Part shown: piece by piece, positions 1 through 44,186 of the stretch
Layout of the letters: the number at the start of each line of letters is the position of its first letter
Numbering within the stretch: position 1 is the stretch's first letter
From: an uncultured Gammaproteobacteria bacterium
GTDB taxonomy: Bacteria; Patescibacteriota; Patescibacteriia; JACQRZ01
DNA: 64,000 bases
Direction: 5' to 3'
NCBI GenBank assembly: GCA_964621085.1
Contig: CAZUKY010000002.1
Location: 22,637 to 86,636, forward strand
The notes under the pieces: model-generated
Told to the model about the DNA's origin: nothing
Seen by the model: only the letters and a program-made list of their open reading frames with translations
Databases searched by the model: none
Program-made: the position numbers and the translations under genes

Positions 1-872
1 TGACGCTGTTCCGCAATGCGCAGGTGATCGAGGATCCGAAGGACTGGGACGCGTTCCAGCGCGTGGTCAAGCAACTCACGCTCATCGACAACCAGCGCAA
101 CGACACGTCAGACATCATTCAGTCGGGAGCGGCATTCGGCGGCGCGGACAATGTGGAGCGGTCACCGGATATCATCGCGACGCTCATGATGCAAAGCGGC
201 GCAGTCATGACCGACGGCAATCAGGTGGCCTTCGATCGTCCGTCGCGCCAGTCGCAGAACCGGAGCGTGGTGCCTGCCGTCGAGGCGCTGCGCTTCTATA
301 CCGACTTTGCCTCGTACGCGCCGCGCAAGGAGCCGTATGCGTGGAACGTGGACCAGCCGAACAGCTTTCAGGCGTTTTTGCAAGGCAAGACGGCGATGTT
401 TTTCGGCTACTCGTACCACCAGACCGCTCTCCGCGCGCAGGCGCCGCAGCTGAACTTCGCGACCCGCCCGATTCCGCAGATCAATCCGCAGCGTCCCGTA
501 ACGTTCGCAAACTACTGGGTGGAAACCGTCTCGAAAAAGAGCGCAAACACGGATTACGCCTGGGACTTTCTCATGTTTGCCGCGGCAAACCAGGATCTGA
601 TGCGCGACTACACGAAAACATCCGGCCGTCCGACTGCCTTGCGGTCGCTTGTTGCCGAGCAGACGGCAACCGAGGATATGAACGCGTTTGCCTCGCAGCT
701 GATCATGGCGCGGAGCTGGTACCGCGGCAAAAAGCCGCTTGTGGCCGAGGAGGCGCTGCGTCGGATGATTGCCGATGCGCTGGACGCCAAGGGCGGTACC
801 GAGTCCGAGGAACGCAGCAAGCTGATGGCGATCGTTCGCAAGGCCCAGCAGGCGATTCAAGCAACCTATTGA
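1..872 (+). CDS. ABC transporter substrate-binding protein, 5'-truncated (C-terminal part only)
   Basis: Open frame runs from the window edge to the stop at 872. The translation (..ALRFYTDFASYAP..TAMFFGYSYHQ..WYRGKKPL..) resembles family-1 extracellular solute-binding proteins. No start codon lies inside the window. Confidence 0.45.
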   Translation, partial: TLFRNAQVIEDPKDWDAFQRVVKQLTLIDNQRNDTSDIIQSGAAFGGADNVERSPDIIATLMMQSGAVMTDGNQVAFDRPSRQSQNRSVVPAVEALRFYTDFASYAPRKEPYAWNVDQPNSFQAFLQGKTAMFFGYSYHQTALRAQAPQLNFATRPIPQINPQRPVTFANYWVETVSKKSANTDYAWDFLMFAAANQDLMRDYTKTSGRPTALRSLVAEQTATEDMNAFASQLIMARSWYRGKKPLVAEEALRRMIADALDAKGGTESEERSKLMAIVRKAQQAIQATY

Positions 873-876
873 GTAT

Positions 877-904
877 GACTCAGGAATCAGGACTCAGGAA
901 TCAG
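877..904. repeat. Short tandem repeat, 14-nt unit gactcaggaatcag x2 plus a partial copy
   Basis: Direct tandem copies read in the sequence between the SBP gene stop and pilin-like gene 1. Confidence 0.6.
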
Positions 905-943
905 GAATTGCGGCCATCATTCCCGCGCCGCGGCTGGCGGCGG

Positions 944-2311
944 ATGGGTATCATGGCAGCAGGTGTCTTTTGCATCTTTGCGGTTTTTATTTTGACCACC
1001 GCTCTTCCTGTTGCGGCGTACAAGTCGACAGGCATCATTCCGAGCGAGTGCTACGGCAGTGGCAACTACGGATGGGGCGGGATCATGCTTCTGATCGGCA
1101 ACATCATCAAGTTCGCACTCGGCTTGTCCGGCACGATCGCGCTTCTGATGTTTTTTGTGGGCGGCTACTTCTGGATCTTCGGTGGCGCCTCGGAGAGCAA
1201 TATCAAAAAAGGCAAAGAGTTCATGACGAATGCCGTCATTGGACTTTTGATCGTGTACGGCAGCTGGGTCGGCGTGAACTACTTCGTCGCAACACTTACG
1301 ACGCCGGAGGGTCAGCGCATTCAGGCTCAGGGCCTGCTCTTCGGTCAGCCGTGGAACCAGTTCGCCCGAGAAACCGAGGTCTGTATCGAGATCGCCAGAA
1401 GCTCAAGAGGCGGCGCATCGATACCGGAGATGAAGGCACCGAAGCCAGCGGCACCAGCGGCGATTCCTGGCAATACTATTAATCACCAGATCACAACCTG
1501 TAAAAAAGAAGATATAAAGCCTGACGCAAAGCCGGCAGGGTCGAACTGCCGATCAAGTGCGTGCAATTGTAAGTCGGGTAGGTGCGACGCAACAGGCGTA
1601 TGTATGCCTGAAGAGATGTCTGAGCAAGTTGCGGAGAATTCGAGGGGTAACTGTTGCTATTTTACGGAAAACTCAGACGGTTCATTTAAGCGAGAGAGTC
1701 CCCGAGTCCACAACGCACAGGGATGTCGAGATCTCATAGCTAGAAGTAGCGATGCTTCATATAAGCGAGATGTCTACTTTTGTGCGACAGAGGCAGGAGC
1801 CGATCCAAAAAATGAAGCAATATGCTTTCAGTATCCGGCTCTCGGGGCATCAAAAACTGATTTTAATTCCGCTTACTTCAAGCAAGGACAGTGTCCGAAA
1901 AGGATAAATATCCGGGCCGCCGGCCTGCAACAACTGCCACCACCGGAGGCGACCGGAGTATGTTGTTATAACTTGAAGAAACGAGAGACTTCAGGAGTTA
2001 GTACAATAACAACCTATTCAGCAGAAGGTGTTAAAAGGACCAGAAATAATTGTTCTAAAGCACGCGTCCAGTCAGCGTACCCATCTGCCACCACTGTAAT
2101 CAACGGCACAAAAACAGACTTGAAAGTAGAAGATACAAGATACTGCTATAAGCATACGAATCCGGAAAGTATTGCCACATCTGCGTGCGGTTCTCAGGTC
2201 GACGCAGGGACGGGTAGTTTTATAGAAGGAGCTCTTGAAGGGGAAGTGAGAGGTAAAAAATGGTATCCTATAGACCAAGAGGCACAAGGAATCACCTGTG
2301 AGCCCCGATAG
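944..2311 (+). CDS. VirB2/TrbC-like pilin-family protein, paralog 1, with ~310-aa Cys-rich C-terminal extension
   Basis: First in-frame ATG after the upstream stop gives a signal-peptide-like N-terminus (MGIMAAGVFCIFAVFILTTALPVAA). The conserved two-helix core is IIKFALGLSGTIALLMFFVGGYFWIFGG..KKGKEFMTNAVIGLLIVYGSW. About 30 Cys lie in the C-terminal region. The ORF track's earlier start at 341 overlaps the upstream gene and is rejected. Confidence 0.5.
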   Translation: MGIMAAGVFCIFAVFILTTALPVAAYKSTGIIPSECYGSGNYGWGGIMLLIGNIIKFALGLSGTIALLMFFVGGYFWIFGGASESNIKKGKEFMTNAVIGLLIVYGSWVGVNYFVATLTTPEGQRIQAQGLLFGQPWNQFARETEVCIEIARSSRGGASIPEMKAPKPAAPAAIPGNTINHQITTCKKEDIKPDAKPAGSNCRSSACNCKSGRCDATGVCMPEEMSEQVAENSRGNCCYFTENSDGSFKRESPRVHNAQGCRDLIARSSDASYKRDVYFCATEAGADPKNEAICFQYPALGASKTDFNSAYFKQGQCPKRINIRAAGLQQLPPPEATGVCCYNLKKRETSGVSTITTYSAEGVKRTRNNCSKARVQSAYPSATTVINGTKTDLKVEDTRYCYKHTNPESIATSACGSQVDAGTGSFIEGALEGEVRGKKWYPIDQEAQGITCEPR

Positions 2312-2670: not shown

Positions 2671-3381
2671 ATGAGCACGAGTCTGAAAAAAGTTTCATTG
2701 ATCATTGCGACAGCATGGCTGATCGGAGGCTTTTCGTTTGTGTCTGCAGAGGAAAGTCCGTCGGGTAGTGGCACATTTTTTTCATCGGACGGCAATTTGG
2801 AACCTTCCAACCCTTATGAAAACGATTACCAATCAGGAGTTCCTTCGACTTTGCAAAGCGCTCCGCTTTCCAATCCTTCACAGGTAGGACAGCTGAACTT
2901 TTGTCCTGGCGCCGGTACCACGCGGGCCGATATCACGACCGAGCAGGCATGCAACGCGTACTGCACGCATGAGAACAACTTTGAAAGGATGGAGGGCTTC
3001 GGTCTGAACAAATCGAAGTATGCCGACGTCGACTGCTGCTGCTGGAAGGGAAGCGTCACATCGCAACCCAAAAAAGTCACCTGCAGCGAGCTGCCGGATG
3101 GCACGTGCGAGCTTGGCAATACATTGAAAGGAGACGTCGCCAAGACGCCGCAGGAGTTTGCGGGGCGGATCATCAAGAACTTCTTGGGGATCGTCGGCGT
3201 GCTTGCACTCGTTATGTTTATGTGGGGCGGCGCGCAGATCATGATGTCTCGCTTCGGCGGCGACGATAAGACAAAATACCAGCAAGGCATCCAGACGCTT
3301 GTCGGCGCAGGCGCGGGCCTCGTTGTGATCTTTGGCAGCTACGCGCTCGTCGAGTTTCTCTTCTCCCGCCTCTTGTCGTAA
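2671..3381 (+). CDS. VirB2/TrbC-like pilin-family protein, paralog 3, with N-proximal Cys-rich insert
   Basis: Signal peptide MSTSLKKVSLIIATAWLIGGFSFVSA. Cys-rich segment (CPGAG..CNAYCTHEN..DCCCWKG..CSELPDGTCELG) precedes the core IVGVLALVMFMWGGAQIMMSRFGGDDKTKYQQGIQTLVGAGAGLVVIFGSYALVEFL. The ATG sits 1 nt after the upstream stop, consistent with translational coupling. Confidence 0.55.
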   Translation: MSTSLKKVSLIIATAWLIGGFSFVSAEESPSGSGTFFSSDGNLEPSNPYENDYQSGVPSTLQSAPLSNPSQVGQLNFCPGAGTTRADITTEQACNAYCTHENNFERMEGFGLNKSKYADVDCCCWKGSVTSQPKKVTCSELPDGTCELGNTLKGDVAKTPQEFAGRIIKNFLGIVGVLALVMFMWGGAQIMMSRFGGDDKTKYQQGIQTLVGAGAGLVVIFGSYALVEFLFSRLLS

Positions 3382-3384
3382 AAG

Positions 3385-3417
3385 TATCCCCATTCCGTCC
3401 GGAAAATGTGGTATACT
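3385..3417 (+). promoter_or_regulatory. Putative promoter: TATCCCCA, 16-nt spacer, extended -10 TGGTATACT
   Basis: Read directly: tatcccca(3385-3392), 16 nt, tggtatact(3409-3417), upstream of paralog 4. The same bipartite motif recurs at 5884 and 13113. Confidence 0.45.
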
Positions 3418-3468
3418 AACCATTACGTGAATAACTTTTTAAGCAGAGCCTTTGGCTCAATCGATCGT

Positions 3469-3855
3469 ATGGCACTTCGCAGGCTTTTCGCAGCCCTCTC
3501 TCTGGCCGGCATTCTCCTCGTTCCCGCAGGCGTGTTGGCGCAGGATCTCGACCCGTCGGATCCTGAAACGTTCCGGAAATACAATCCGCCCGTTTCTTCG
3601 AACGTCGAGACGGATATCGGCATGATCGCGAAAAACATCATCGGCGTCGTTATGGGTTTCCTTGGACTGTTCGCCGTGGTCATCATTATCATTGCGGGTT
3701 TCAAGTGGATGACGGCGGGCGGTGATGAGAAAAAGGTTGAAGAGGCGAAAAACCAACTCATCCAAGGCGCGATCGGTCTTGTCATCATCATCGCCTCCTG
3801 GAGCATCGCCTTTTTCGTCATCGAGCAGATCGCAAAGGTTGTCGGTGGGCAGTAG
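3469..3855 (+). CDS. VirB2/TrbC-like pilin-family protein, paralog 4
   Basis: Start chosen at MALRRLFAALSLAGILLVPAGVLAQD (signal peptide), downstream of the predicted promoter. Core is IIGVVMGFLGLFAVVIIIIAGFKWMTAGGDEKKVEEAKNQLIQGAIGLVIIIASWSIAFFVIEQI. Confidence 0.5.
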   Translation: MALRRLFAALSLAGILLVPAGVLAQDLDPSDPETFRKYNPPVSSNVETDIGMIAKNIIGVVMGFLGLFAVVIIIIAGFKWMTAGGDEKKVEEAKNQLIQGAIGLVIIIASWSIAFFVIEQIAKVVGGQ

Positions 3856-3874: not shown

Positions 3875-4324
3875 ATGCTTTTTCAAAAGACAGCATTCCT
3901 CTTTTTCGCGTGGAGCGCTGTCTTTTTGTTTTTCTTCGCCCCCATCAGCGGCACATTTTCGTTTGTTGATGCAGCCGAGTCTTCATCCGGGCCCGTGAAT
4001 TTGAATGTCTCCGGCACGGGCCTGGAAGACACCGGCAAGGCGGCTGGATTCAAAGAGGGGCAAAACCAATTGCCAGGGTATATCGGCACCGTCCTCAAGG
4101 CATTTTTTGGCGTGTTGGGTATTATCTTCCTCGCCTTGACGATCTATGGCGGCCTGCGGTGGATGCTCTCGCAGGGAAACGACACCGAAATCAAAGGCGC
4201 CCGCGATACGATTATTAGCGCGGTTATCGGCATTGCCATCGTTGCAGCATCCTATGCGATTACAGACTTTGTCATCGACCAGCTTGTAAAAAGCGGGGTA
4301 AAACAGGAGATTATCGGCGAGTGA
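3875..4324 (+). CDS. VirB2/TrbC-like pilin-family protein, paralog 5
   Basis: Hydrophobic N-terminus. Core is FFGVLGIIFLALTIYGGLRWMLSQGNDTEIKGARDTIISAVIGIAIVAASYAITDFVIDQL. Confidence 0.5.
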   Translation: MLFQKTAFLFFAWSAVFLFFFAPISGTFSFVDAAESSSGPVNLNVSGTGLEDTGKAAGFKEGQNQLPGYIGTVLKAFFGVLGIIFLALTIYGGLRWMLSQGNDTEIKGARDTIISAVIGIAIVAASYAITDFVIDQLVKSGVKQEIIGE

Positions 4325-4325
4325 T

Positions 4326-4724
4326 ATGCAAATCCTTTCTTCCATCATTTCTCGTGGAGCCGTGTTTGTGGGCGTATTCTTGCCGGCAACGGCAGTTTTT
4401 GCGGACAATCCTCCTGCAAACACAATAAAAGGAAATCTGAAAGAGAGTGCTAGTAGCGTATTTTCGCAAAGCGAGATTGCTGTTGTCATCGGCTCGATCG
4501 TCACTGCGCTTCTTGGAGTTCTGGGTGTCGTTTTTTTGGCGCTGTTGATCTATGGCGGCTTTCTGTACATGACTGACCTGGGCGATGAGAAGCAGGCGGC
4601 AACAGCAAAGAAACTGATCACGAATGCAACCATCGGGTTGGTTATCGTTGCAGTCTCGTTCGCGGTGACGAAGTTCGTGCTGGATAGCATCGGCGGGGCT
4701 GCCGGAGTAAGTGGTAGTTTTTAA
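4326..4724 (+). CDS. VirB2/TrbC-like pilin-family protein, paralog 6
   Basis: Signal peptide MQILSSIISRGAVFVGVFLPATAVFA. Core is LLGVLGVVFLALLIYGGFLYMTDLGDEKQAATAKKLITNATIGLVIVAVSFAVTKFVL. Start lies 2 nt after the upstream stop. Confidence 0.55.
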   Translation: MQILSSIISRGAVFVGVFLPATAVFADNPPANTIKGNLKESASSVFSQSEIAVVIGSIVTALLGVLGVVFLALLIYGGFLYMTDLGDEKQAATAKKLITNATIGLVIVAVSFAVTKFVLDSIGGAAGVSGSF

Positions 4725-4732
4725 GACCGTAT

Positions 4733-5317
4733 ATGGCAGAAATAAAGAAAAGAACAGTAACGCGTGCTCGTACGGGCCGCAGCGGTCAGGCAACACGAAA
4801 GCCGCGCGTCGCGGCTCGTCCTGTGCGTCGGAAGCGGCCCGCGATCTCGGCGGAGAATATTCCACAACTCGAAGCGGTCATCATAGAAGAGGGGAGAAGT
4901 GCAGAGCCTGGCCACATCATCTTTATGCAGCGCACAGGCGTCGTTCTCAACCGTGCGTTTAGCGTCACGACGGCGACAGTCCTTTCCCTTTCCCTTATGC
5001 TGGGTGGCATGACAACGTTCGCCGAAGGACTCAAATTTAGTGACGTGCAAAACAATGTCGGCGCCGAACTTGATCTGGCGACAGTCATCGCGAATATCAT
5101 CAACGTATTACTTGGTTTACTGGGTGTCGTTTTTGTGTTATTTGTTATCTATGGCGGGTTTCTCTGGATGACAGACAAGGGCGATGAGAAGCAGGCAGAG
5201 CACGCGAAAGCCGTCCTGAAAAACTCCACCATCGGCGTTGTCATCGTTGCGCTTGCCATGGCGATTTCCAACTTTGTGATCAGCACTCTGGCAACCAAGG
5301 TCTTTACAGGCGAGTAA
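4733..5317 (+). CDS. VirB2/TrbC-like pilin-family protein, paralog 7 (possible internal start at 4925)
   Basis: Core is LLGLLGVVFVLFVIYGGFLWMTDKGDEKQAEHAKAVLKNSTIGVVIVALAMAISNFVISTL. The first 64 codons are strongly basic and atypical. The Met at 4925 (MQRTGVVLNRAFSVTTATVLSLSLML) would give a signal-peptide-like start. Confidence 0.45.
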   Translation: MAEIKKRTVTRARTGRSGQATRKPRVAARPVRRKRPAISAENIPQLEAVIIEEGRSAEPGHIIFMQRTGVVLNRAFSVTTATVLSLSLMLGGMTTFAEGLKFSDVQNNVGAELDLATVIANIINVLLGLLGVVFVLFVIYGGFLWMTDKGDEKQAEHAKAVLKNSTIGVVIVALAMAISNFVISTLATKVFTGE

Positions 5318-5370: not shown

Positions 5371-5811
5371 ATGAAAAAAGCTATTGCACTTTTCGGCGCA
5401 ACTGCTGCGATCTGCTCGCTTCTTGTGCCGGTTGCCGTTTTCGGTGCCGAAACGACTGTTTCTGGTTCGCTCGGCGGATCGACCGCCCCAACTGGAATAG
5501 GACAGGCGCTCCAGGGCGGCGCAACCGCTGAACTGGAGAAAGAGGACCTGTTTAAGACAAAGACCGACTTCATCACGATTGTTGCCAATATTATCAGTGT
5601 TATTTTGGGCTTCCTCGGACTGATCCTGGTCGCCTTCATCATCTATGCCGGCTTCCTCTGGATGACGGACAACGGCGACGAGAAACGCACCGAAACAGCA
5701 AAGAATATTCTCCGCAACTCGATTATCGGCCTCATCATCATCGTGGTAGCGTATGCGATTTCAAACTTTGTCGTGAGTACGCTGGCAACTGACGTCTTGA
5801 AGCAGCAGTAA
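5371..5811 (+). CDS. VirB2/TrbC-like pilin-family protein, paralog 8
   Basis: Signal peptide MKKAIALFGATAAICSLLVPVAVFGA. Core is ILGFLGLILVAFIIYAGFLWMTDNGDEKRTETAKNILRNSIIGLIIIVVAYAISNFVVSTL. A TATAAT -10 lies at 5347-5352 upstream and a terminator follows downstream. Confidence 0.55.
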   Translation: MKKAIALFGATAAICSLLVPVAVFGAETTVSGSLGGSTAPTGIGQALQGGATAELEKEDLFKTKTDFITIVANIISVILGFLGLILVAFIIYAGFLWMTDNGDEKRTETAKNILRNSIIGLIIIVVAYAISNFVVSTLATDVLKQQ

Positions 5812-5832
5812 GGAAGGCAAAAAGAAAGTAAA

Positions 5833-5861
5833 AGAGCGTCTGCGTACAGACGCTCTTTTTC
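5833..5861 (+). terminator. Rho-independent terminator closing the pilin-like array
   Basis: agagcgtctg / cgta / cagacgctct 10-bp stem followed by a T-run (ttttc). Confidence 0.7.
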
Positions 5862-5954: not shown

Positions 5955-8900
5955 ATGCGGCATTTTCTCACATACCCCATGCCATCTCAATTTTCCAAAA
6001 GAGGATGGGCGCTCCTTACTGCAGTCGGAGCGATTTTTGCGTTGCTGACTGCAACCGCCTCGTCTACCTTCGCCCAACCCAAAAGCACCGAGGGTCCCAG
6101 CGCGACGCTCAATGAGCTGCTCGAGGATGAGACGCTCAAGAAGGTTATCAATCGCGGCGCGACCGATCAAAGCCGCAACGATGCGAGCGAGTACACGGGC
6201 CCGATCATCTTTGGGGGAAGCCTGGAGGTGCGCGGCGGGTTAAAGGGTGTACCAGACTCAGCCGATCCGAGTGATCCGAAGAAAAACAAGCTTTTGCTGC
6301 AAAAAGACGGCGGGAACGTCGGAATTGGAACGGCAACGCCGATAAACGCAGCGTTGGAAGTGGTTAAGGCGGGGGGCGTACAGGGACGGTTTGCGTACGA
6401 CGCCGATCGCTATATTGATATTATTGGGAATGTCGGCGTTAAGCTTCGCTCGGCAGACAGTCAGAACAACCCCCTTGAGATCGTAAAGGAGGGAAAGGGC
6501 GAGTTGGTTTTCAAGACCGGCCTCAATGGTGCAACAGCAGCCCGACTGATAATTCTTCAGGATGGCAACATTGGCATCGGGACGGCCGATCCGAAAAACA
6601 AACTGACGATTGGCTCAAGCAACAAGATTCAAGAGACGAAAGGGCTGGGCTTAGGCGCGGATCAGAATGTTGTCGAGTTGGTGCATTCAACGTACGGAAA
6701 CGGCTACGGATCAAAGCTCTACGGCCGCGATTTCGGTAATGGAGGGACGGGTCTTGCCATCGCTACGCGCGGAAATACGGGAACATGGACAGACGCCGTT
6801 ACGATCCGCGCAGATGACGCGACCGGCGGAAAGAACGGTAACGTCGGCATCGGCACGATTTCGCCGAATGCCGCACTTGCTATTTTTCGGAACGGCGTGA
6901 ATGCTGCGATCGACCTTGGATCGAAAGGCGAGAACGGCAACTATTGGTCGTTACGGCATGATGGCAGTGATGACAGACTCGCATTTTGGTTCAAAGATGG
7001 CGGCGATAAGTTGTCGCTTGGCAAAGACGGCGTGTTGTCTGGCAATGCATTCTCATCCCTTGCGAAGCAGTACGACTGGGTATCTTTGGGCGCGCGCACG
7101 ATGACGAGTCCCCAGCTTGCCGGCATTCCGCTCTGCGGCGCAAGCAACTTCAACAACCCTCTCGAACCGATTTGCTATACCGGCAGCGGCTCGAACTACG
7201 AGTTCAAGGAGCGCCAGGGCGTCGCCCATCCGAATACAAAACAGAAGGATGGCACGATCGCAACTCACGCACTTACTGCCGAGCGAAAGATCGCGATCGG
7301 TCTTCCTGGCTCGCAACAGAACGCTCTGTTGAACCCATCGTTGGAAATCAATCAGCCCTTCTACAGTCGCATCTTCCTGGGCGCGACGCAGTACCAACCA
7401 GAAGCCCAGCACGTGAAGATGGTCGTGGACGCCCGCGGCGACGGCCGCCTGGGCGGTGCGAACATGGGCCAGATCGGCACGATCTCGGGTCATCCCCTGA
7501 GCCTTTTGACAAATGACAGGGAACGCCTGCGCATCAGCGAATATGGCGGCGCAGAGATTTTTGCCTCGGAAAACAACACCAACGCTCTGGTCGTGAACGG
7601 CACGGTTCGCATCAAGAAGGTCGGTAACGAGCACGGCGGCTTGTATGTTGACGGCCCCGCTCAATTCCGCAACGGCATCACCTTCCCGCAGCTCGATGCA
7701 AATGGCAATCCAACCGCAACGAACCTCGCGTATATCAATCAGGCCGGCGACGCGATGTTTAGGAACCTACAGGTTAACGGCACCCTCACTGACAAGAGCG
7801 GCAATGAGTTTAAGCCCATCTGGTCTGGTGACGCAGCAAAGGCGTATCTTGCGAGCGGATTCGAAAACGCATCGGTCGGTATCGGTACGAATGATCCGAA
7901 GGCGAAGTTGCATGTGGAAGGTGATAATGGTCTTATGCTATCTCGAGCTGGCAACCAGACCTTGGGTGGAGGCCGTATAGGGCTTTTAGTCGGCTCCATC
8001 CTGAATGTTATTCAAAGCGCGGGTACTGGAAATTTGCATATATCCGGCGGCCTTGTCCCTGGTTCAGATGATCCTGTTCGCACTTCAGTAATTCTTCAGC
8101 CTACGGATGGTTATGTCGGTATAGGAACTATGCAACCGGGAGAAATACTCGCCTTGGGGGGCTCAAAGCCAGCGATTGATCTTGGCGCGGGTACTGAAAA
8201 CAGAGAGTTGAATGCAGGAAAAATCGCCTATCAGCGTTGGAGTGACGGTCTTGATATTGTTGGGGCGGGTGGCCCTAATGTAGCTGATCGAAAGATATAC
8301 TTTTATAATGAAGGAGGCGCTTTTTTTAACGGAGATGTGCAATTGAGCGCCACTAAAACATTACGGAGCTCAGGGCGAATGCATATCACGGGTGAAGAAA
8401 ACTTATATCTACTTAATAAGGGGGGAGTTGTAGTCAGTAATGCTTGGGGAGGAAACGGCAGTTTGACTGTAGATGGCAAAACCACTATCGGAAATGCAAG
8501 CACGAGAGGACAGGTGATGCTCGAGGTGCTTGGGAAAGCAGAGATTCATGGAGACGTGAACCTCAAACTCAGTAGCGCGAACAATCCGCTTGCGAAAAAG
8601 GGCTCGTATCTTGCCTACGATCCAAAGGTACAAGGTTTCGATATTGCAGAAAAATTTTCAACGGACTCCGATGTTGAGCCGGGGGATGTACTTGTTGCTG
8701 GTAAGAAGTCAAACACATTGACTCTATCCTCGAGACAATATCAAAAAGGCGCGATTGGCGTTGTTTCCACATCACCCGCTATCGTTTTTGAAGGAGGTGA
8801 GATAAAACTTGCCGCAGAAGCGCGGTTTTCGAAAGGGAAAAATCCCCCAGTAGCACTTTCAGGGCGTGTTCCAGTAAAGGTTACACTCGAAAATGGCCCG

Positions 8901-9131
8901 ATTCATCCTGGTGACTACCTCACGGCTTCATCAAGAAAGGGGTATGCGATGAAGGCAACCGAACCCGGCCCCATAATCGGCATCGCGCTTGAGTCCTATA
9001 CTTCGAGAACGTCAACAGAAAAGATCATGATGTTCGTGAATACTTCGGAAGGAAATACAGAACTGGTCACCCAGGAGTTATTGAAGCTTCGCAAGGAACT
9101 GGACGAGGTGAAGAAAAAGCTTCGAAAATAA
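5955..9131 (+). CDS. Phage tail-fibre-like secreted protein with C-terminal intramolecular-chaperone-like domain
   Basis: Signal peptide (..MPSQFSKRGWALLTAVGAIFALLTATASSTFAQP). The alternative start at 5979 is in frame. Five copies of the x-V-G-I-G-T-x-x-P-x-x-K/A-L motif (GNVGIGTATP, GNIGIGTADP, GNVGIGTISP, ASVGIGTNDP, GYVGIGTMQP) typical of tail-fibre-domain proteins. The C-terminus (PVALSGRVPVKV..GPIHPGDYLTASSRKGYAMKATEPGPIIGIALESY) resembles peptidase G2 / S74-type auto-processing chaperone domains. Terminal coiled coil is ELLKLRKELDEVKKKLRK. Confidence 0.55.
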   Translation: MRHFLTYPMPSQFSKRGWALLTAVGAIFALLTATASSTFAQPKSTEGPSATLNELLEDETLKKVINRGATDQSRNDASEYTGPIIFGGSLEVRGGLKGVPDSADPSDPKKNKLLLQKDGGNVGIGTATPINAALEVVKAGGVQGRFAYDADRYIDIIGNVGVKLRSADSQNNPLEIVKEGKGELVFKTGLNGATAARLIILQDGNIGIGTADPKNKLTIGSSNKIQETKGLGLGADQNVVELVHSTYGNGYGSKLYGRDFGNGGTGLAIATRGNTGTWTDAVTIRADDATGGKNGNVGIGTISPNAALAIFRNGVNAAIDLGSKGENGNYWSLRHDGSDDRLAFWFKDGGDKLSLGKDGVLSGNAFSSLAKQYDWVSLGARTMTSPQLAGIPLCGASNFNNPLEPICYTGSGSNYEFKERQGVAHPNTKQKDGTIATHALTAERKIAIGLPGSQQNALLNPSLEINQPFYSRIFLGATQYQPEAQHVKMVVDARGDGRLGGANMGQIGTISGHPLSLLTNDRERLRISEYGGAEIFASENNTNALVVNGTVRIKKVGNEHGGLYVDGPAQFRNGITFPQLDANGNPTATNLAYINQAGDAMFRNLQVNGTLTDKSGNEFKPIWSGDAAKAYLASGFENASVGIGTNDPKAKLHVEGDNGLMLSRAGNQTLGGGRIGLLVGSILNVIQSAGTGNLHISGGLVPGSDDPVRTSVILQPTDGYVGIGTMQPGEILALGGSKPAIDLGAGTENRELNAGKIAYQRWSDGLDIVGAGGPNVADRKIYFYNEGGAFFNGDVQLSATKTLRSSGRMHITGEENLYLLNKGGVVVSNAWGGNGSLTVDGKTTIGNASTRGQVMLEVLGKAEIHGDVNLKLSSANNPLAKKGSYLAYDPKVQGFDIAEKFSTDSDVEPGDVLVAGKKSNTLTLSSRQYQKGAIGVVSTSPAIVFEGGEIKLAAEARFSKGKNPPVALSGRVPVKVTLENGPIHPGDYLTASSRKGYAMKATEPGPIIGIALESYTSRTSTEKIMMFVNTSEGNTELVTQELLKLRKELDEVKKKLRK

Positions 9132-9232
9132 CAACCACTCATCTAATCCGCAGCATAAGGCGAAGCGATGACGTGATCCGTATATGAGCAAACGGAATCA
9201 GCGCTCTCGCTTCGCCTCTTCAGTAGAAAGGC

Positions 9233-12200
9233 ATGAAACCGTCAGCGCAAAATAATATATTCGCCAAGGGATTCCTCGGAATCCTTTTTGGCGTTTTAGC
9301 TACTGGTATTATCGGTTTCTTTCTCAACGTGGACCCAATTCAGGCCGCTTGGTGTATTACAAAAGGGGAAAAAACGGACTGCATCCCGAACTTCAATTAT
9401 ACAAGCGGCACGCCCGTCAATCAAACCTATCAAATCGAAGGAAAGACAGCTGATCCGAATAAGAAGTGGACGATAACGAACCAGCGTTCCGGCTATTGCA
9501 ATAATAATGTCTGTGTCAACGATCTTGGTCTGCCGAAATTTGAGATGGTTTCCCGAGGAGATGATAACGATACGGATGATAAGATCCAAATACGCCTGAG
9601 GGTCCAGGGCAACACCGGAAGCTATTGGTATGTACGAAAAAATAGTGGATACAGTAACGATGACGGGTACCCGAATACCGGAGATCCCCAAGAAGATCGA
9701 GGTCTTTCAAGGATCCAATACGATGGTATTCAAGGATTAAGAGGCGGGAATTACGCGCAAAATCTTTGTCCCGGGGATAATGGCAGTAGCTGGGACGACA
9801 AATTCGATGTCACTCAGGCAGGCGGATATTTTACTGCGGAAGCACCAGGACCGCGTACGTGCTATGACTCAAAGCTCGTCACTGTAACACATAAGGCGCC
9901 GCAGCAAGTTACAGACCCGAAACATCAGGACACATGGCGAGTGTATGTGTATAGCCCCCAGGATGGGATGATGCACTATACAGATCACACAGACGCTGGT
10001 ACTTATCCGAATGGGTGGAATGCCTATTGGAATAACTGCTGGAAGGGATGGCCATTAAATTGTGAAGGTCGCTGGGAGCAGCCACGCTATCCGGAGTGCG
10101 GCTGCGGCAAAAATGACCCCACTGAAAAGCTCTGTATAAGTTACGGCGTGGCCGGCTTACAATCAAACAATAACTGCTACGACTTCTTTAAAAAGCACAT
10201 CGGCTTTGGGACGAAAACAGAAAATTCTAAAACAGTGACAGAGATGAGGTACCGCGAGGTTACCACGGTGCCCCGATTTAGTCTCGCTACGCTCAACAAT
10301 AAAACTGCATATGCTCCCCATAGAGAAGGTGCGGTATGGCCTGACAATACCTACTTACTCTACTATGATACAAAGAATTTAAATCGAACGGACGGGGCAA
10401 AAAATAAGGTAAAGGCCGTTCAGAACGAGCAGCCGGTTTTTTCCGATCTTAACAAGTGCATTTTTGACCGTAAATTTCTTGAAGTAACACATCATGGTTC
10501 GTACACTGATTATGTTGTTCAAGCGGAAGGACTTCTCGGCAACAGGTTCATCGGATGGCTTTTGTTAAGCCGCGATGAACAAAATGCTATAAAACAAAAG
10601 ATTCTTACGCATGATAAAAGGTTCTACGACAGATCTATAAAAGACGCGCAAAATGAGGAACAAGTAGGGCTGGTACTCATGAGTTTTAAAGCCACCGATG
10701 CATTCAAAAATGACGTCATCAATTCCAAGTTACTAAAAGAGAAGGAGTTTAACGTCATATTCAAGGGAGTATCGCAAACCGTCCAGGCGGCTACCGAAGT
10801 CCCCAAAGAAAAAGATGAGGGCATTGCATGTCGCGCACAACTGCCCTCAGAGTTCGGCATGACCAGTACATATACGTACTTTACTGGTCCAGCTTCAATA
10901 CCGCCTGTTGAGATTCGTTCGTTTCGGGCGACAGCGGTCGGTCCGGATAGTGACTTTGTCGGCGAGACAACACAAGAGCTTACAAGTATTGGAAGCGGCG
11001 CTAATGTTCTCCCCGACCCAACTAATCGATTTTCGTCTGCGCGTGCTGACCTGAGTGCTGGCGCGGGCGAAGTATTGGATCTGCAGGCATACCAGGATAC
11101 CGTCAATCTCAGACTGGAGTGGCAAACTCCCTTTGCCGGCCGGGTACGGATTTTTCAAAAAGATGAGCGGCATGCGACGGCGACGGATCTCAGTCAGTTG
11201 GCGTGTTTGGGTAGATGGGGGGACATCATTGACAGTAATGACCCATGCCCGGCAAGGGGAGAAGTAACATCTGTACGGGAGCTTACGGTTGAGGGACTTC
11301 AGAGCAATAAGAACTATACGTTTTATATCGTCGTCGAAAATAAGCGCGGCGACAGCACCGCGCTACAGCCGACTCAGTGGGCTACAGCCGCCAGACTCGA
11401 CGTTACTGTCCGGCCGGCACCGATTGTCGTCACGAGCGCAACCGCGAAATACGTGAAAGGAAAGGAGAACTGCAAGAGTAATGCATTACCGGGCCAGACC
11501 AATACTCCGACCGAGTGCGCGGAAATTACCTGGAAAGTCGATGGTAGACCGACAGAGATAGTTCTTAAAGCGCCGAAAGGATGGAATAGGACAGTATGGA
11601 CAGACCATACATTCGCTTCGCACTCCTACACGTCAAACGGTGATTTTGACAGATATTTTCCTATTCATACAAGCGAAATCAATCGTTATCGCTCAAATTT
11701 TATCCTCATTGCAAAACGCGGCGATATTACATCGGCCGAGTTTCCTTTTGAGCTTCGAGGCGTGCCGCGCGATCCTATGACAATCGCGGCAGAAGGATGG
11801 AAGGATGGCAACAATGTTCGTGACAAGTCTCTTTTTGAGGCGATTCTCAATACCGACTGCGATGAGTGGTGGCCAGGTTTAGATTTGATATGCAGAGGAA
11901 CGACATTTAGCAGTATTTTTAATATCGCTCGTGAGTCAATATCGTCATCGCTCGCCGGTGCACTGGCAGTAGTGACTGGAGGTGCCGGCGCACTCCTTAA
12001 GCCGATTGTCGATTTTGTTCTAAGGGTTGTTGAGCCGATTGCCTTTGGATTGGTTGGTATGATAGGAAATTTAGTGCAGGCGAACAACGAGAATCTTATT
12101 GACTGGAAGAAGGACATTAATTGGCAGCCATTTCTCGGTTCCTTCGGACTGAGTTTCGCAGTCAATTCATTTACCGGCGTGCTTCAGGCGATCTTTGGAA

Positions 12201-13069
12201 AATGTGCGGCAGCGCCCCTCGTTGGTGCAATTCACCAGGTTATTGATCTTGTCGGCACGCTCCTCAGAATCGCTGGAATTAATTTAGGCTGTCCGGATGG
12301 TGAAGAAAATAGCTGCGAAATGGGAGCAGATATGGGGAAGACAATGGGAATAATTGCCGGTGAAACAGTTTATTATGCAGTAACCGGCGATAACTCTTGG
12401 AAGCCAGAGGTCTGCCCTGGTGAAAAACCTCCGGAAGAGGAAGAAGATCCGTGTACTCCGAAGCCAGGCGAACCGTTCGATTACGCGAGATCGCAAGAGT
12501 GTTTTGGAGAGAAGTATCTGCCCCAACGCTATGGATGCAACGAAGAAAATAAGTGCGTGCCCGCTGAAGCCGGTACCTTTGCTGATCCGTTATGCAGTAA
12601 CACATGCGATGTGTCAAAAATTGTCGAGAAGAAGGTAACGGAAATAGTAAAAGAAGACACAAAATCAATATTTGACTGCTCGGGTACTGTGGATGGAACC
12701 GAAGTCGGTCAAGGTTATGGCGGTGAGCGATATGCTAACGAATACCAGTATAGAACGCGCTCAAAGAAAGCGGTTGCCGATGCGCTTATGTCAGCATATT
12801 ATGTTGCGACGTGTGGTAAATTTTGCCTGAGAAAGGACGCGGCTCTTAGTTGTTCTGAGGATCTCTACAACAATAATAAAAACAATTTCGATTCAATATT
12901 TAATACCGCAGATTCGTATATTGATGACAAAAATAGACGGAATCTAAGTACCAAGGTGCATGATAATCTGTTCCGTGATACGTTTGATGGTCTCATGAAA
13001 GAGGCAGCTTCATGCGGCATTAAAGATGTTACTAGGTTTATTCCCGTCCCCTGCGCATTCGCACAATAA
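9233..13069 (+). CDS. Large Cys-rich membrane-anchored hypothetical protein (1278 aa)
   Basis: N-terminal TM helix (FAKGFLGILFGVLATGIIGFFLNV). Many Cys throughout. Internal Gly/Ala-rich hydrophobic segment (AGALAVVTGGAGALLKPIVDFV..FGLVGMIGNL). Visibly AT-richer than flanking genes. No family recognised. Confidence 0.5.
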   Translation: MKPSAQNNIFAKGFLGILFGVLATGIIGFFLNVDPIQAAWCITKGEKTDCIPNFNYTSGTPVNQTYQIEGKTADPNKKWTITNQRSGYCNNNVCVNDLGLPKFEMVSRGDDNDTDDKIQIRLRVQGNTGSYWYVRKNSGYSNDDGYPNTGDPQEDRGLSRIQYDGIQGLRGGNYAQNLCPGDNGSSWDDKFDVTQAGGYFTAEAPGPRTCYDSKLVTVTHKAPQQVTDPKHQDTWRVYVYSPQDGMMHYTDHTDAGTYPNGWNAYWNNCWKGWPLNCEGRWEQPRYPECGCGKNDPTEKLCISYGVAGLQSNNNCYDFFKKHIGFGTKTENSKTVTEMRYREVTTVPRFSLATLNNKTAYAPHREGAVWPDNTYLLYYDTKNLNRTDGAKNKVKAVQNEQPVFSDLNKCIFDRKFLEVTHHGSYTDYVVQAEGLLGNRFIGWLLLSRDEQNAIKQKILTHDKRFYDRSIKDAQNEEQVGLVLMSFKATDAFKNDVINSKLLKEKEFNVIFKGVSQTVQAATEVPKEKDEGIACRAQLPSEFGMTSTYTYFTGPASIPPVEIRSFRATAVGPDSDFVGETTQELTSIGSGANVLPDPTNRFSSARADLSAGAGEVLDLQAYQDTVNLRLEWQTPFAGRVRIFQKDERHATATDLSQLACLGRWGDIIDSNDPCPARGEVTSVRELTVEGLQSNKNYTFYIVVENKRGDSTALQPTQWATAARLDVTVRPAPIVVTSATAKYVKGKENCKSNALPGQTNTPTECAEITWKVDGRPTEIVLKAPKGWNRTVWTDHTFASHSYTSNGDFDRYFPIHTSEINRYRSNFILIAKRGDITSAEFPFELRGVPRDPMTIAAEGWKDGNNVRDKSLFEAILNTDCDEWWPGLDLICRGTTFSSIFNIARESISSSLAGALAVVTGGAGALLKPIVDFVLRVVEPIAFGLVGMIGNLVQANNENLIDWKKDINWQPFLGSFGLSFAVNSFTGVLQAIFGKCAAAPLVGAIHQVIDLVGTLLRIAGINLGCPDGEENSCEMGADMGKTMGIIAGETVYYAVTGDNSWKPEVCPGEKPPEEEEDPCTPKPGEPFDYARSQECFGEKYLPQRYGCNEENKCVPAEAGTFADPLCSNTCDVSKIVEKKVTEIVKEDTKSIFDCSGTVDGTEVGQGYGGERYANEYQYRTRSKKAVADALMSAYYVATCGKFCLRKDAALSCSEDLYNNNKNNFDSIFNTADSYIDDKNRRNLSTKVHDNLFRDTFDGLMKEAASCGIKDVTRFIPVPCAFAQ

Positions 13070-13112
13070 AAAGAGGAGCTCTAGGGCGGAGCGCTGATGC
13101 GGTGAATGAACC

Positions 13113-13148
13113 TATCCCCACAACAAACAGAACAGGGAGTGGTATGAT
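13113..13148 (+). promoter_or_regulatory. Putative promoter: TATCCCCA, 19-nt spacer, TGGTATGAT
   Basis: tatcccca(13113-13120), 19 nt, tggtatgat(13140-13148). Lies about 70 nt upstream of the giant protein gene. Confidence 0.45.
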
Positions 13149-13217
13149 AGAAGTGCCGTTCTTATTTGAACGGCAGGGCGTTTACCGCCATTTTAGGCAA
13201 CGTATATCAAGAGGCGC

Positions 13218-16200
13218 GTGCCCGTATTTTTGAGACATCATCGGCTGGTTTTCGCTGCCGGGGTTTTGGCCCTTGGCGGGTTTTTTGGCGTTCCCGTACT
13301 TGCGAATGCTCTTAGCGTCATGGTGGCAACGCCATTTCGAATCAGTACGCCTATCAACGGAACGGTGGTCACACTGCCGGAAGCGAAAGTGACGGTTCCA
13401 ATTACTGTTGTGTCGCCAGGCGACCAATATGCTGGCGTTACGGTTACCGCAGAGATCCGTTCGGCAAGCGGTGATGTGCGGACGCTTCCGATGAGTGTTT
13501 CATCGACCGGTGCAGCCGGAACGACATTTTCTGCGCAGTGGACTGCCACGACCGTCGGGAGCTACCTGATCACTGCGCGCGCAACGCAGTCCGGGTATAA
13601 TGACCGGGTCAGTGCGCCGGTTCGCGTGAATATCATCTCTCCGTCCGGAAACGCATCAGGGCGCATTTCCGGCGCTTTTACGCAGAGTGCCGCCAAGCAA
13701 GCCGGAAAATTCGACGTCATTCCTGGAACAGATGCAGGTGCAATTCCTGGTGACTACCGCCGGCCGCGCATTGGGCCCGTTCTGCCGCCGATCTTTGAGT
13801 TCAGTATTTCGGAACCGCTTGAACAGAAAGTGATGATGGATGTCAGTCTTTACGGCGCCGAAGCGCGAAAAGCCGCGGCAGAGAACTCGCGATTCCTGCT
13901 TGATTGGAGTGCAAATACTATTGCTCGCGAGCTGTCTGCCGGTGCACAGGAACGCATTCCGATCTATCGGAATGGCGCTGCTATTGTGCTCTCTGTTGGG
14001 CAAGTCAACCAAAATGCATACATCGATCTCTACTCCGCGCCGTACTATGACGGAGTTGCCGATGATATCGAGGATCCGATAAAATCAGTTCCCGGTTTTC
14101 AGAAACTGAAGGCCTGTCCGAATGCAGTCTCGTGCATTTTTTCTTTGGGGACAGCCAAGAACGGCCGGCATATCGTAGTCGCTCGTGTCAGTGCGAATGG
14201 CATCTCGCGCTTCTCATATCGTCTTGTCGAGGTGCGCGGGCAGAATGCGGCGCCGATTGTTGCAATGAGTCTTCTGAGCGATCAGAAACCATTTCTCCTG
14301 CCGCAAAAATTGAACATCCGAGTAGATGTGGCAGATGCTGACTCGGATCGCAATGCCGCTGGCAGCCCCATCGAGCGAGTGATTATTTTTGCGGGAGACA
14401 AAAAGATTGCCGAACTCGAAAAGCCAACACAAAATATTAATACGCGCACGGAAAAATTCAATTCTCTTTTTAAAGATCTCGATTTTTCGACGTACGCCAC
14501 ACTGCAGACGTATGCGGCCGAGTGGAAGGTTGAAAGCGGCCGCCATGACCTACGCGCGGTCGCAATCGACACCGAAGGCATGCCGTCAGATCCCTTTGTT
14601 ATTAAGGATTTCATTGCAACCGAGCGGCCGAAAGTTTCTGATCTTATCGTCGTCGGAAAGGAGCGTCCGTCGGATAGCGGTCCGTGGATCGTGCAAGAAG
14701 GAGAGGAGTTCACGTTGCAAGCAAAAGCGACAGACGACGGACGCATCGTGTCGATGGCATTTACGAGCGAACAAAAGGCGGCAGGCGGCGGATCCGCCTC
14801 GCCAGTTTCCGGTGAAGACAATCTGTATCGTCTCACCGTAAAGGATCGCGCCGCCGGCGCTGAATACGTATACGCCGGCATTGCACAGGATAACGAGGGG
14901 GTTACCAACGATCCTCTGCCGCGGATGACCGTCAAGATGAATAAGAAGCCGGATATCCGAGATCTGTCCCGTGATGCCGAGGAGTATCAGCCGAATACAA
15001 AAGTAACGCTTGCCGCACTTGCAAAGGACATCGATAGCGCGCTTTCATCCGTCGAGCTCGTTGATGCAAAGACAGGAGCCCGCATCGATTTCAAAGAAAA
15101 TATCGGCGCTTCAAAAAATACCGATTACGCCTACCGCTTCGAGTGGGTGCCGCCATGGAATGAAGATGCGAAAAATGTCGATCAGAGCGCGATGCACTCG
15201 CTTAAGCTCATCGTCCGGGATGCGGACGGCGGCGTTCGCGAGGCGACCTTCCCGACGGTGACCGTTCGCAACCGTGCGCCGTCCGTCACCAAATTTTCCG
15301 CCACAAAGGCGGTGTATCAGGATACCGAGCCCGTCGTCGTATCACTTGAGGCAATCGATAACGACAGTGGCATGAACGGCGTCACATTTGTCTTGAAAAA
15401 CACCGCCGGAACACTCAGTAAAAATTTCATTCTCAATGCCCCGACGCGGCCGGTGTCAGGCATTGATGTACGACGAGGCGGGGTGTATGAGGCCGAGATA
15501 AAAAATCTTGCGCCGGACTCCTACATCATAACGGCGATCGCTTCGGATATCGCTTCGCCCGCAAAAGCATCACCCGAACAGGTGGTGAGTGTCCGTGTCA
15601 ACGCGCCGCCGACGGCAGAAGGCCTGACGGTTTCCACTCCGCTCGTCCAACCGAACGTGCCCGCGACTTTTTCGATTATCGCGCGGGACAGCGACAGCGA
15701 CGTGAAAAGCGACAGTCGGATCGGGTCGGTGATGCTGCTGCGCGATGGTGTGGAAATCGCCGTCATGCGTCTGCGCGCTGGCAGTGGCGACACCTATGAA
15801 GCGAGCTGGACGCCGACCCTGTGGTCGCCAGACATTCCCGATCAGGCACAGCAGTATATCTCGAAAGGTTTTTCCGTACGGATCGAGGATACGGATAGGC
15901 GGCGCATCGAAAAAAAGACAGACATAACAGTAACCGTCAAGAATGATCCGCCTGCGCTTGTGCCGGATGGCAAGCAGCTGACCGAGCGGAGCGTCTATCA
16001 GAAGGGCGAGACCGTGACACTCTCGGCCGCTGTCAGTGATGCGGATAGCGGCGTTGCGCGCCTTCAGTTTTTCGCGAATGGGACGGCGATTCATACCATC
16101 GACAATCCTTCCCAAAAAGTTTCGTTCCAGTGGAAGCCGACTCCCGGAAGTTATGCCCTGACGGCAACGGCGACCGATCGCGCGAAACCGGTCAAGACGG

Positions 16201-21761: not shown

Positions 21762-21772
21762 GGAGTGAATAT

Positions 21773-43403: not shown

Positions 43404-44186
43404 TTACAATATATCATCTTTCAGGATCTCATCGAGCTTTTTGTCCAGGTCTTCGTAACTGACCCGTTCATCTTTTTTCTTTTTTGGGGCCGTGTCGGTC
43501 GCTGACTCGTCTGACGCCTCTGCTTCTTTGGTCGCAACGGCCACTCCTGACTCTTCCGGCGCTGCCACTGCGGCAGCAGGTGTTTGCGCCTCTGCCGTTT
43601 CAAGTCGCTCTTCGTCAACAGTAGTCGATGGTGCAGCTGCAGTAATGGGCTGATCCGTCGATGCATCATCGTGCGTCGGCGCTGCCGGGACGCTCATCGC
43701 GGGTGCCGCGTCGCTTTCTTCAGTTGCAACTGGAGACGTCTCCTCGCGTGTCACTGCGGCAGCGTCTGATGCCTGCTCGGCGGTCGCTGGGGTTGCCGCA
43801 TCGGGTTCGCTCGCGAACACGTCGCGAAGCTCAGCCGGAATCTCGGACTTCGTGCGCGCTTCGGCCTCGGGTCGTGCGTGGAACTGCTTCGGCGCGCCAA
43901 CCTCGTCCCGCTTGGTGATCAGGTGTCGCAGCAGATCTGCCGAGAGGCCAAGCTCGCGATCGATTTTTTTGACGATCTCCGGACTTCCGTCGAACTCATG
44001 CACGACATAATAACCGTAATGCAGGTGCTTGATCGGATAGGCGAGCTTCCGTCGCCCCATGTGCTGCGTGTAATGGATAGCGCAGCCGTTTTTTTTCAAG
44101 AGGTCATCGATTTTTCCCGTGACGCTCTCGAGCTCGCCCTCAGCGAATTTGCCGCTGACAATCGTGAGAAGTTCGTAGTGGTTCAT
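43404..44186 (-). CDS. rpsF: 30S ribosomal protein S6 with long acidic, low-complexity C-terminal extension
   Basis: MNHYELLTIVSGKF..RRKLAYPIKHLHYGYYVVHEFDG.. S6 core (~100 aa) followed by ~160 aa of Ala/Glu/Thr/Pro-rich extension. Confidence 0.85.
   Translation of the reverse strand: MNHYELLTIVSGKFAEGELESVTGKIDDLLKKNGCAIHYTQHMGRRKLAYPIKHLHYGYYVVHEFDGSPEIVKKIDRELGLSADLLRHLITKRDEVGAPKQFHARPEAEARTKSEIPAELRDVFASEPDAATPATAEQASDAAAVTREETSPVATEESDAAPAMSVPAAPTHDDASTDQPITAAAPSTTVDEERLETAEAQTPAAAVAAPEESGVAVATKEAEASDESATDTAPKKKKDERVSYEDLDKKLDEILKDDIL

Follow-up and report, generated by a model that had tools for sequence, protein, structure and literature searches.

A VirB2-like pilin with a cysteine-rich C-terminal extension leads a pilin gene array in a Patescibacteria genome

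What does a small two-helix pilin do with a cysteine-rich extension of about 310 amino acids? The question is raised by a stretch of 64,000 nt from a genome of the GTDB phylum Patescibacteriota (contig CAZUKY010000002.1, positions 22,637 to 86,636; here called the window), in which a Pfam scan found PF18895, together with weaker TrbC/VirB2 matches, in eight consecutive genes. The first of these proteins, P0001 (478 aa), and the third, paralog 3 (236 aa), exceed the size of small pilin precursors, which is about 100-150 aa. A sequence-only reading of this DNA had noted Cys-rich parts in both proteins and had suggested that they are tip-adhesin or receptor-binding variants of a filament subunit. 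Southlakia epibionticum depends on its VirB2-like pilin arrays (PMC12102498, PMC10633639, PMC12857230), and the one Patescibacterium that is genetically tractable cannot grow as an epibiont without them (PMC10633639). We propose that P0001 is a modular VirB2-like pilin that displays a disulfide-rich, lineage-variable binding module on a filament, and we put the probability of this reading at about one half.

The gene of P0001 is a single unbroken frame that starts with the ATG at position 875. A longer mechanical open reading frame (ORF; 341-2311 (+)) begins with a spurious stretch that runs over the 3' end of the preceding gene, which stops at 872, and public gene calls use the start at 875. 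The identical 478-aa protein is encoded by an NCBI contig of 103 kb and by the Logan assembly of run SRR5011273. P0001 has the layout of the T4SS_pilin family, a signal peptide followed by two hydrophobic helices with a short charged loop. The predicted signal peptide consists of an Arg-rich n-region and an h-region (aa 24-46) followed by the putative cleavage motif V-A-A|Y. Hydropathy peaks at aa 21-46, 70-100 and 116-140, and AlphaFold predicts helices at aa 66-102 and 107-141 with a predicted local distance difference test score (pLDDT) of 60-78; the short, charged loop between them, GGASESNIKKGKEF, is predicted to be cytoplasmic. The core ends around aa 141 (nt ~1297), in agreement with the sequence-only reading, which had placed this border near nt 1300, and 337 residues remain 3' of the hairpin. 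Directly after the start codon, a 14-nt unit is repeated exactly in tandem (GACTCAGGAATCAG, two copies, 877-904). Since 14 is not divisible by three, gain or loss of a copy would change the reading frame or displace the effective start; a possible alternative start, ATG, is present at 944.

The core of P0001 aligns with its seven paralogs, all of which pass the PF18895 cut-off (31-46 bits), and it matches further cut-off-passing pilins in BLASTP searches, for instance one at locus L063 (E 5.5e-19). N_methyl or type IV pilus pilin families were not detected in the Pfam scan of any paralog. The pilins of this array are of the VirB2/TrbC type known from type IV secretion systems (T4SS; PF18895) and are not type IV pilus pilins.

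The part of P0001 that follows the core is exceptionally rich in cysteine. Its last 310 aa (nt 1379-2308), of which about 270 lie beyond the Pro/Ala linker, contain 19 Cys (6.1%), compared to 0.2-1.1% in housekeeping proteins of the window and a median of 0.6% in ORFs of at least 300 aa at related loci, and this enrichment is far above chance. The Cys-rich extension of about 310 aa reported from the letters alone is real, but it had been credited with about 30 Cys; 29 is the count over the whole mechanical ORF 341-2311, with 8 of them in its spurious upstream part. Likewise, the CxC (230/232) and CC (260/261, 363/364) spacings are present, but CxxxC is absent and CxxxxC and CxxxxxC are found instead. 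Every peptide string quoted occurs in the sequence. The extension was also correctly described as AT-richer than the core (GC 0.47-0.49 vs 0.56), and the contrast is sharper in the GC content of third codon positions (GC3), which is 0.71 in the core, 0.45 in the first and 0.385 in the second half of the extension. Reference values are 0.53-0.79 for the neighbouring pilin genes and 0.67-0.72 for rpoB, rpoC and IleRS. The switch is located at aa ~170-190 (nt ~1400-1450), with sliding GC3 falling from 0.74 to 0.50 between aa 121 and 181.

An exhaustive HMMER search (phmmer) with the extension against 1.84 billion representative proteins returned a single relative, P0004 (E 4.6e-4), a protein of 327 aa encoded on an ENA contig (L002). 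The BLASTP match between P0004 and P0001 (1e-14) starts in the core, spans the linker and extends into the Cys-rich part, and the order of signal peptide, PF18895 core, linker and module is the same in both proteins. A third member was obtained when metagenome contigs were scanned with the solute-binding protein (SBP) encoded upstream of P0001. It is a 390-aa protein encoded 0.8 kb downstream of an SBP homologue on a contig of the Joint Genome Institute (JGI; L090), and it matches P0001 over the core, the post-core segment, the Pro/Ala linker and the Cys framework (BLASTP 3e-27). In the three-way alignment (alignment A6) seven columns are invariant (C232, C237, C243, C260, C261, C303 and C317), and the framework reads C-x4-C-x-C-x4-C-x5-C, which is knot-like, followed by G-x-CC-[YF] ... 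C ... [YF][FW]-C ... C. We provisionally defined this family, module A, from aa 209-343 of P0001, P0004 and the L090 protein. Judged by this alignment, module A is a small, conserved and nearly orphan domain with three members, found only as a pilin fusion.

Further searches returned little. Extension and core recovered only P0001 itself plus one pilin of 132 aa from a database of 5.8 billion proteins, and the module A profile found nothing in this database or in the JGI contigs and no further member in 94 loci. Region B, which forms the rest of the extension, had no homologue in any search and has only a G-V-CC-Y motif in common with module A. The idea that it is a repeat of module A found no support, with the Smith-Waterman score being reached by 170 of 500 shuffles and a domain E-value of 11 in the hidden Markov model search. 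The search for homologous Cys-rich modules that the sequence-only reading had suggested was thus successful for module A, but not for region B or for the Cys-rich insert of paralog 3, which had no homologue among the loci compared. Structure prediction, suggested there as well, yielded little beyond the hairpin. The AlphaFold model of full-length P0001, made from a two-sequence alignment, reached a pLDDT of 38.8 with the hairpin alone being usable, the model of the extension (pLDDT <50) was unusable, and module A modelled alone reached 56.

Is a pilin with a fused module a peculiarity of this genome? GTDB was scanned with paralogs 6-8, using one genome per species, which yielded 494 loci; 80 of these, mostly from Uhrbacteria, Falkowbacteria and unclassified Patescibacteria, were kept for analysis, and a profile built from the paralogs of the window was run against the ORFs called in them. 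Loci picked by similarity to paralogs 6-8 are a biased sample, and the numbers below describe this sample and not the phylum. Altogether, 330 pilin-core ORFs were found in 82 loci, with a C-terminal extension of at least 100 aa in 95, at least 300 aa in 79 and at least 1,000 aa in 38 of them. The median Cys content of the 95 extensions is 4.2%, compared to 0.6% in other long ORFs. Two layouts were seen. Layout I, to which the window belongs, comprises arrays of 6-8 genes in which long Cys-rich leaders (200-660 aa, 8-44 Cys) are followed by short pilins with few or no Cys. After trimming of upstream and signal-peptide residues, Cys-rich pilins were present in 28 of 39 arrays; the first gene was Cys-rich in 23 of these 28, and 50 of the 57 Cys-rich genes were located in the first half of their array. 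Layout II consists of pairs of giant fusions, one of 650-1,160 aa and one of 1,500-3,460 aa, with up to 177 Cys. A Pfam re-check of ten examples confirmed PF18895 and detected TIG, Big_5 and fn3 domains in the giants.

The giant pairs have the PF18895 core at the N-terminus and are found at L003 (7164-15694) and in ~35 other loci (L004, L005, L009, L011, L030, L034, L065 and others); in them, very large surface proteins appear to use the pilin hairpin as a module at their N-terminus. Among the relatives, modules are located either N-terminal or C-terminal to the core. The 87 modules compared fall into 54 BLAST clusters, and in one of these a single module occurs on either side of the core. The pilins most similar to the P0001 core lead other arrays and are not its own neighbours. 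A modular design of VirB2-like pilins is widespread in this sample but apparently undescribed. Two further variants were observed. At L048 (6393-7391), one ORF of 332 aa contains two tandem pilin cores and then a tail with 14 Cys. The first-position pilins of L071, L028, L053, L092 and L093 have differing Cys-rich tails that all end with the motif C-[PSN]-G-x(4-6)-CC-x(1-4)-COOH, and this recurrent CC-end motif may mark a shared sub-domain or a processing signal.

Since the signal peptide of P0001 is followed by two membrane helices, its C-terminal extension is predicted to be extracytoplasmic, whether or not the signal peptide is cleaved. The insert of paralog 3 is placed between the signal peptide and helix 1, and for this reason it is likewise predicted to lie outside. 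CPR (candidate phyla radiation) genomes are reported to be enriched in MdbA-like thiol-disulfide oxidoreductases encoded beside VKOR (10.1101/335083); MdbA/VKOR genes were not found within the 64-kb window. Mature P0001 contains 20 Cys, namely the 19 of the extension and C59, which aligns with a Cys in the L090 protein, and there are 12 in mature P0004 and 8 in mature paralog 3. Across the related loci, an even number of Cys was counted in 84 of 96 C-terminal extensions, and for mature proteins this was so in 69 of 80. Parity and the outside location together point to a stabilisation of the module by disulfides.

How did P0001 come by its tail? The first pilin encoded after the SBP gene differs strongly in size between related contigs, ranging from 129-178 aa with no or one Cys to 390 aa with module A (Table 1). 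Tandem paralogs with swapped tails are clearly seen at L002 (1757-3488), where P0004 and the protein of the next gene have a near-identical signal peptide and core and unrelated tails (12 Cys vs Cys-free). Furthermore, the drop in GC3 from core to extension in the P0001 gene (0.29) is the largest among 97 comparable genes; GC3 of the extension is 0.43 and thereby similar to that of its module relatives, 0.36-0.42 in contigs of 47-48% GC. Together, the size range of the first gene, the tail swap and the GC3 drop favour a tail that was gained or replaced by recombination, possibly from a lineage of lower GC. The recent fusion that the sequence-only reading had proposed to look for in related genomes thereby receives indirect support, from the size range and the GC3 drop. 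As a simple proof of horizontal transfer the GC3 break is weakened, with core GC3 being slightly above that of the extension in 69 of the 97 genes. Flanking repeats that would mark insertion of a cassette were not found, and the gene upstream of P0004 is unrelated to SBP.

In solved pili of the VirB2 family the termini point outward from the filament, whose lumen is lined by the inter-helix loop, and F-pilin displays short peptides fused to its C-terminus; a hairpin of this type could therefore carry a module on the exterior of a filament. We propose that the hairpin anchors P0001 in the membrane and would permit its entry into a VirB2-type filament, where P0001 would be a low-abundance, probably terminal subunit with its module facing outward. 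A low-copy or terminal position is likely because a tail of 340 aa cannot sit on every subunit. The 20 Cys of the mature protein would form about ten disulfides and thereby stabilise a compact surface module, which may bind a ligand on a host or partner cell. The leading Cys-rich genes of the array would set specificity, the short Cys-free paralogs would supply the bulk subunits, and modules would be exchanged or replaced between lineages and between paralogs. A role in recognition or adhesion would fit the extreme diversity of the modules, the domains of adhesin type in relatives and the way in which Cys-rich genes keep to the 5' end of their arrays. The tip-adhesin or receptor-binding idea put forward from the sequence alone is partly supported in that the Cys stretches belong to pilin proteins, have a predicted outside location and an even Cys number, and have relatives with TIG, Big_5 and fn3 domains; roles in a filament, at its tip and in binding are putative.

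Several points weigh against this proposal. The extension has no significant profile, sequence or fold match in Pfam, NCBIfam or PDB, and no adhesin, lectin or other known binding domain was recognised in it by these comparisons. The PF18895 match of P0001 itself (aa 72-137, E 3.8e-5, 24.1 bits) is below the Pfam gathering cut-off of 26.6. Genes for T4SS machinery (virB4, virB6, virB3) were found neither among the ORFs of the 64-kb window nor in the 10 kb upstream (L001), and a pilus made of PF18895 proteins has not been visualised according to the Patescibacteria T4SS literature cited here. A tail of 340 aa does not fit a helical homopolymer, and its incorporation requires the assumption of low stoichiometry. 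The orthologues in the sample are not independent, and the statistics on Cys parity and array position overstate the significance.

The main rival holds that the hairpin is never polymerised and serves only as an anchor, tethering a disulfide-rich surface protein (an adhesin, a receptor or an enzyme) to the cytoplasmic membrane of a monoderm cell, with the same being true for the giant fusions of 1,500-3,460 aa. The predicted topology is equally compatible with such an anchor, the missing T4SS genes around the array agree with it, and extensions of up to ~3,300 aa on the same core are hard to place in a filament. We nevertheless regard it as rather unlikely, since the core is still recognisably pilin-like and shares an operon with seven short pilins of the ordinary kind, and the fixed 5' position of the Cys-rich members across genomes suggests a role within an assembly of several subunits and not that of a generic anchor.

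Quite improbable, in our view, is a pro-protein whose extension is cleaved off and released as a secreted Cys-rich factor (a toxin, a signal or a bacteriocin-like product), leaving a short pilin. Processing at the C-terminus is established for TrbC/VirB2 propilins: the tails of RP4 TrbC and of Agrobacterium VirB2 are removed during maturation. A flexible Pro/Ala linker lies between core and module, and two proteases are encoded in the region, a subtilase in the window (56520-58070) and an intramembrane protease of the signal peptide peptidase (SPP) family upstream. Yet the tails known to be removed have a few to about 30 residues, compared to 340 here, alignment A6 contains no conserved cleavage motif, and neither N-terminal inserts as in paralog 3 nor giant fusions with Ig domains fit this explanation.

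Binding of a metal (Zn, Fe-S) or redox chemistry by the Cys clusters, instead of structural disulfides, is very improbable. The dense C-x4-C-x-C-x4-C spacing and a very weak SufA-like match (E 0.011, aa 403-442) could be taken as hints of it, but the SufA match is noise (15.9 bits vs a cut-off of 136 bits), the location is predicted to be extracytoplasmic, the bias towards even Cys numbers is strong across the class, and a conserved His/Cys metal-site motif is absent. The weakest explanation, a frameshift or chimeric assembly that joined a short pilin gene to an unrelated downstream gene, is barely credible: GC3 breaks sharply within the ORF and both assemblies of P0001 may stem from the same reads (SRR5011273), but P0004 and the L090 protein, from other samples, are the same continuous core-linker-module protein, the sequence is native-like on both sides of the low-GC3 stretch, the frame has no stop in the 310 codons of nt 1379-2308 (12 and 25 in the other two frames), and a separate signal peptide for a second gene is missing. 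Because three independent samples encode a continuous fusion, the frameshift merge that the sequence-only reading had offered as its own alternative is excluded as the source of the architecture.

Paralog 3 shows a different arrangement. It consists of a signal peptide (aa 1-26), an insert (aa 27-157) and the pilin core (aa 158-236), and the Cys-rich module described earlier between signal peptide and core was confirmed, with 8 Cys at aa 78-146 (nt 2902-3108). A DNA repeat of 97 nt with 72% identity (2549-2645 in paralog 2 vs 3264-3360 in paralog 3) identifies its core as the sister of paralog 2, and paralog 3 looks like a duplicate that has gained an N-proximal insert. A relationship between this insert and the P0001 extension was considered and rejected, as no similarity was found.

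The SBP gene is probably part of the same operon as the pilins, because its stop codon lies only 2 nt before the start of P0001. A palindromic hairpin located 19 nt past the last pilin gene is likely a bidirectional terminator that closes this SBP-pilin operon. The order of SBP and pilin array was found in at least 10 of 14 metagenome loci (L083-L093 among them), in contigs with a GC content of 31-53% and with an SBP identity of 42-47%; neighbours other than SBP were not conserved across the 14 loci. This suggests that SBP is functionally linked to the pilins rather than to an ATP-binding cassette (ABC) transporter. The SPP-family protease gene (PF06550, presenilin-like; L001 7747-8553) is located two genes upstream of the array and was not kept beside the arrays of other loci; it is conceivable that its product processes pilin signal peptides. 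Downstream of the array, a separate unit (5955-24016) encodes four very large predicted secreted proteins (1058, 1278, 2847 and 756 aa), all without a pilin core. Repeats of the Big_7, cadherin and filamin-like types occur in the 2847-aa protein. Cys makes up 2.8% of the 1278-aa protein, for which GC3 is 0.47, and the 756-aa protein shows a weak match to the CGP-CTERM Cys-rich family TIGR04292. Elsewhere in the window, an ORF for ribosomal protein S6 (43404-44186 (-)) encodes 260 aa with the S6 domain at aa 3-92, which leaves a C-terminal extension of ~170 aa.

Table 1. Coordinates of the pilin array, its parts and its flanks in the window, with the first pilin after the SBP gene at the loci compared
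Feature	Position or locus	Strand	Basis and remarks
SBP_bac_1 solute-binding protein gene, 3' part	24..872	+	PF01547, E 2.9e-9; full 482-aa gene in L001
P0001, modular VirB2-like pilin (proposed)	875..2311	+	first of eight tandem pilin genes; PF18895, core BLASTP, identical calls in two assemblies
P0001, predicted Sec signal peptide, aa 1-48	875..1018	+	sequence; Kyte-Doolittle windows >1.6 start at aa 21-33
P0001, two-helix pilin hairpin, aa 66-141	1070..1297	+	AlphaFold helices, hydropathy, alignment with seven paralogs
P0001, post-core segment and Pro/Ala-rich linker (KAPKPAAPAAIPG)	1298..1498	+	BLASTP to L090 spans segment; GC3 switch here
P0001, Cys-rich module A, aa 209-343, 12 Cys	1499..1903	+	conserved in P0004 and the 390-aa protein of L090
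P0001, Cys-containing region B, aa 344-478, 6 Cys	1904..2308	+	unique to source genome; GC3 0.385
Paralog 2, short Cys-free pilin, 116 aa	2319..2669	+	PF18895 E 2.7e-7; gene call in L001
Paralog 3, 236 aa	2671..3381	+	PF18895 E 6.3e-9 on aa 158-227
Paralogs 4-8, 132-194 aa, 0-1 Cys each	3406-3855, 3875-4324, 4326-4724, 4733-5317, 5371-5811	+	PF18895 E 1e-7 to 5e-12
Palindromic hairpin, perfect 13-bp stem, A and T run flanks	5830..5859	.	terminator scan
First pilin after SBP	L083, L084, L087, L091		129-178 aa, 0-1 Cys
First pilin after SBP	L093		185 aa, 6 Cys
First pilin after SBP	L092		262 aa, 20 Cys, a different module
First pilin after SBP	L090		390 aa, 21 Cys, module A
First pilin after SBP	window		478 aa, 21 Cys

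A broader reading can be put forward tentatively, and as a whole we find it rather doubtful: Patescibacteria of the Uhrbacteria/Falkowbacteria type would build VirB2-type pili from combinatorial subunits in which a two-helix core is joined to hypervariable disulfide-rich or Ig-like modules at either terminus, the array leaders would be host-recognition adhesins of the essential CPR T4SS, and swapping of modules would set the host range. If this is true, modular VirB2-family pilins are a new class of filament subunits that includes giants of >3,000 aa. No adhesins were detected in a survey of 3,035 Patescibacteria genomes (PMC12102498), and pilin-fused modules may supply the missing host-binding parts of the secretion-system pili of this group. 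Provided that they bind, Cys-rich modules fused to pilins are candidate determinants of host range throughout CPR that are concrete and simple to list. Module A is compact (~135 aa, 12 Cys, three known members), and its core region could be expressed and tested.

The closest known systems are the VirB2/TrbC-like arrays of Patescibacteria, which were described in 383 assemblies with 2-11 genes and ~25% mean identity (PMC12102498). The window array is of the same kind, with tandem, divergent two-helix pilins of PF18895 in the same phylum, and its eight genes have 21-39% identity to paralog 4 (alignment A1). It differs in that small pilins were described for those arrays (PMC12102498, PMC10633639), whereas genes 1 and 3 of the window carry modules. 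Unlike virB4-linked arrays it does not adjoin virB4; ~40% of CPR pilin genes are located away from virB4 (PMC12102498). No mention of pilins with fused Cys-rich or Ig-like modules was found in PMC12102498, in PMC10633639 or by full-text searches of open-access papers; domain-architecture databases may already list such fusions.

VirB5-type tip adhesins, PrgB and TraN have the proposed recognition of a target cell by a T4SS-associated structure in common with P0001, but they are separate proteins and not pilin fusions, and sequence similarity to them was not detected. In design P0001 is also like pIII of filamentous phages, where flexible linkers connect disulfide-containing receptor-binding domains with a membrane-inserted segment, and this segment caps a filament of a small helical major subunit. 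The two proteins are not homologous, and the domain order is reversed, the binding domains of pIII being N-terminal.

The nearest parallel in architecture is found in modular type IV pilins such as PilB and PilC of S. sanguinis, in which a short linker connects a small polymerisation module with a bulky functional one that the filament presents (PMC8179133). A location at the tip has been proposed for them too, and many architectures are known, CPR examples included (PMC8179133). Type IV pilins belong to an unrelated superfamily, with a class III signal peptide, one N-terminal helix and assembly by the PilB/PilC machinery. Compared to their N-terminal module (IPR012902), the core of P0001 is a two-helix hairpin without an N-methylation motif, and the resemblance is functional only. 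If the modules bind, the modular pilin would be a principle of the VirB2 family as well as of type IV pili, to which this family is unrelated.

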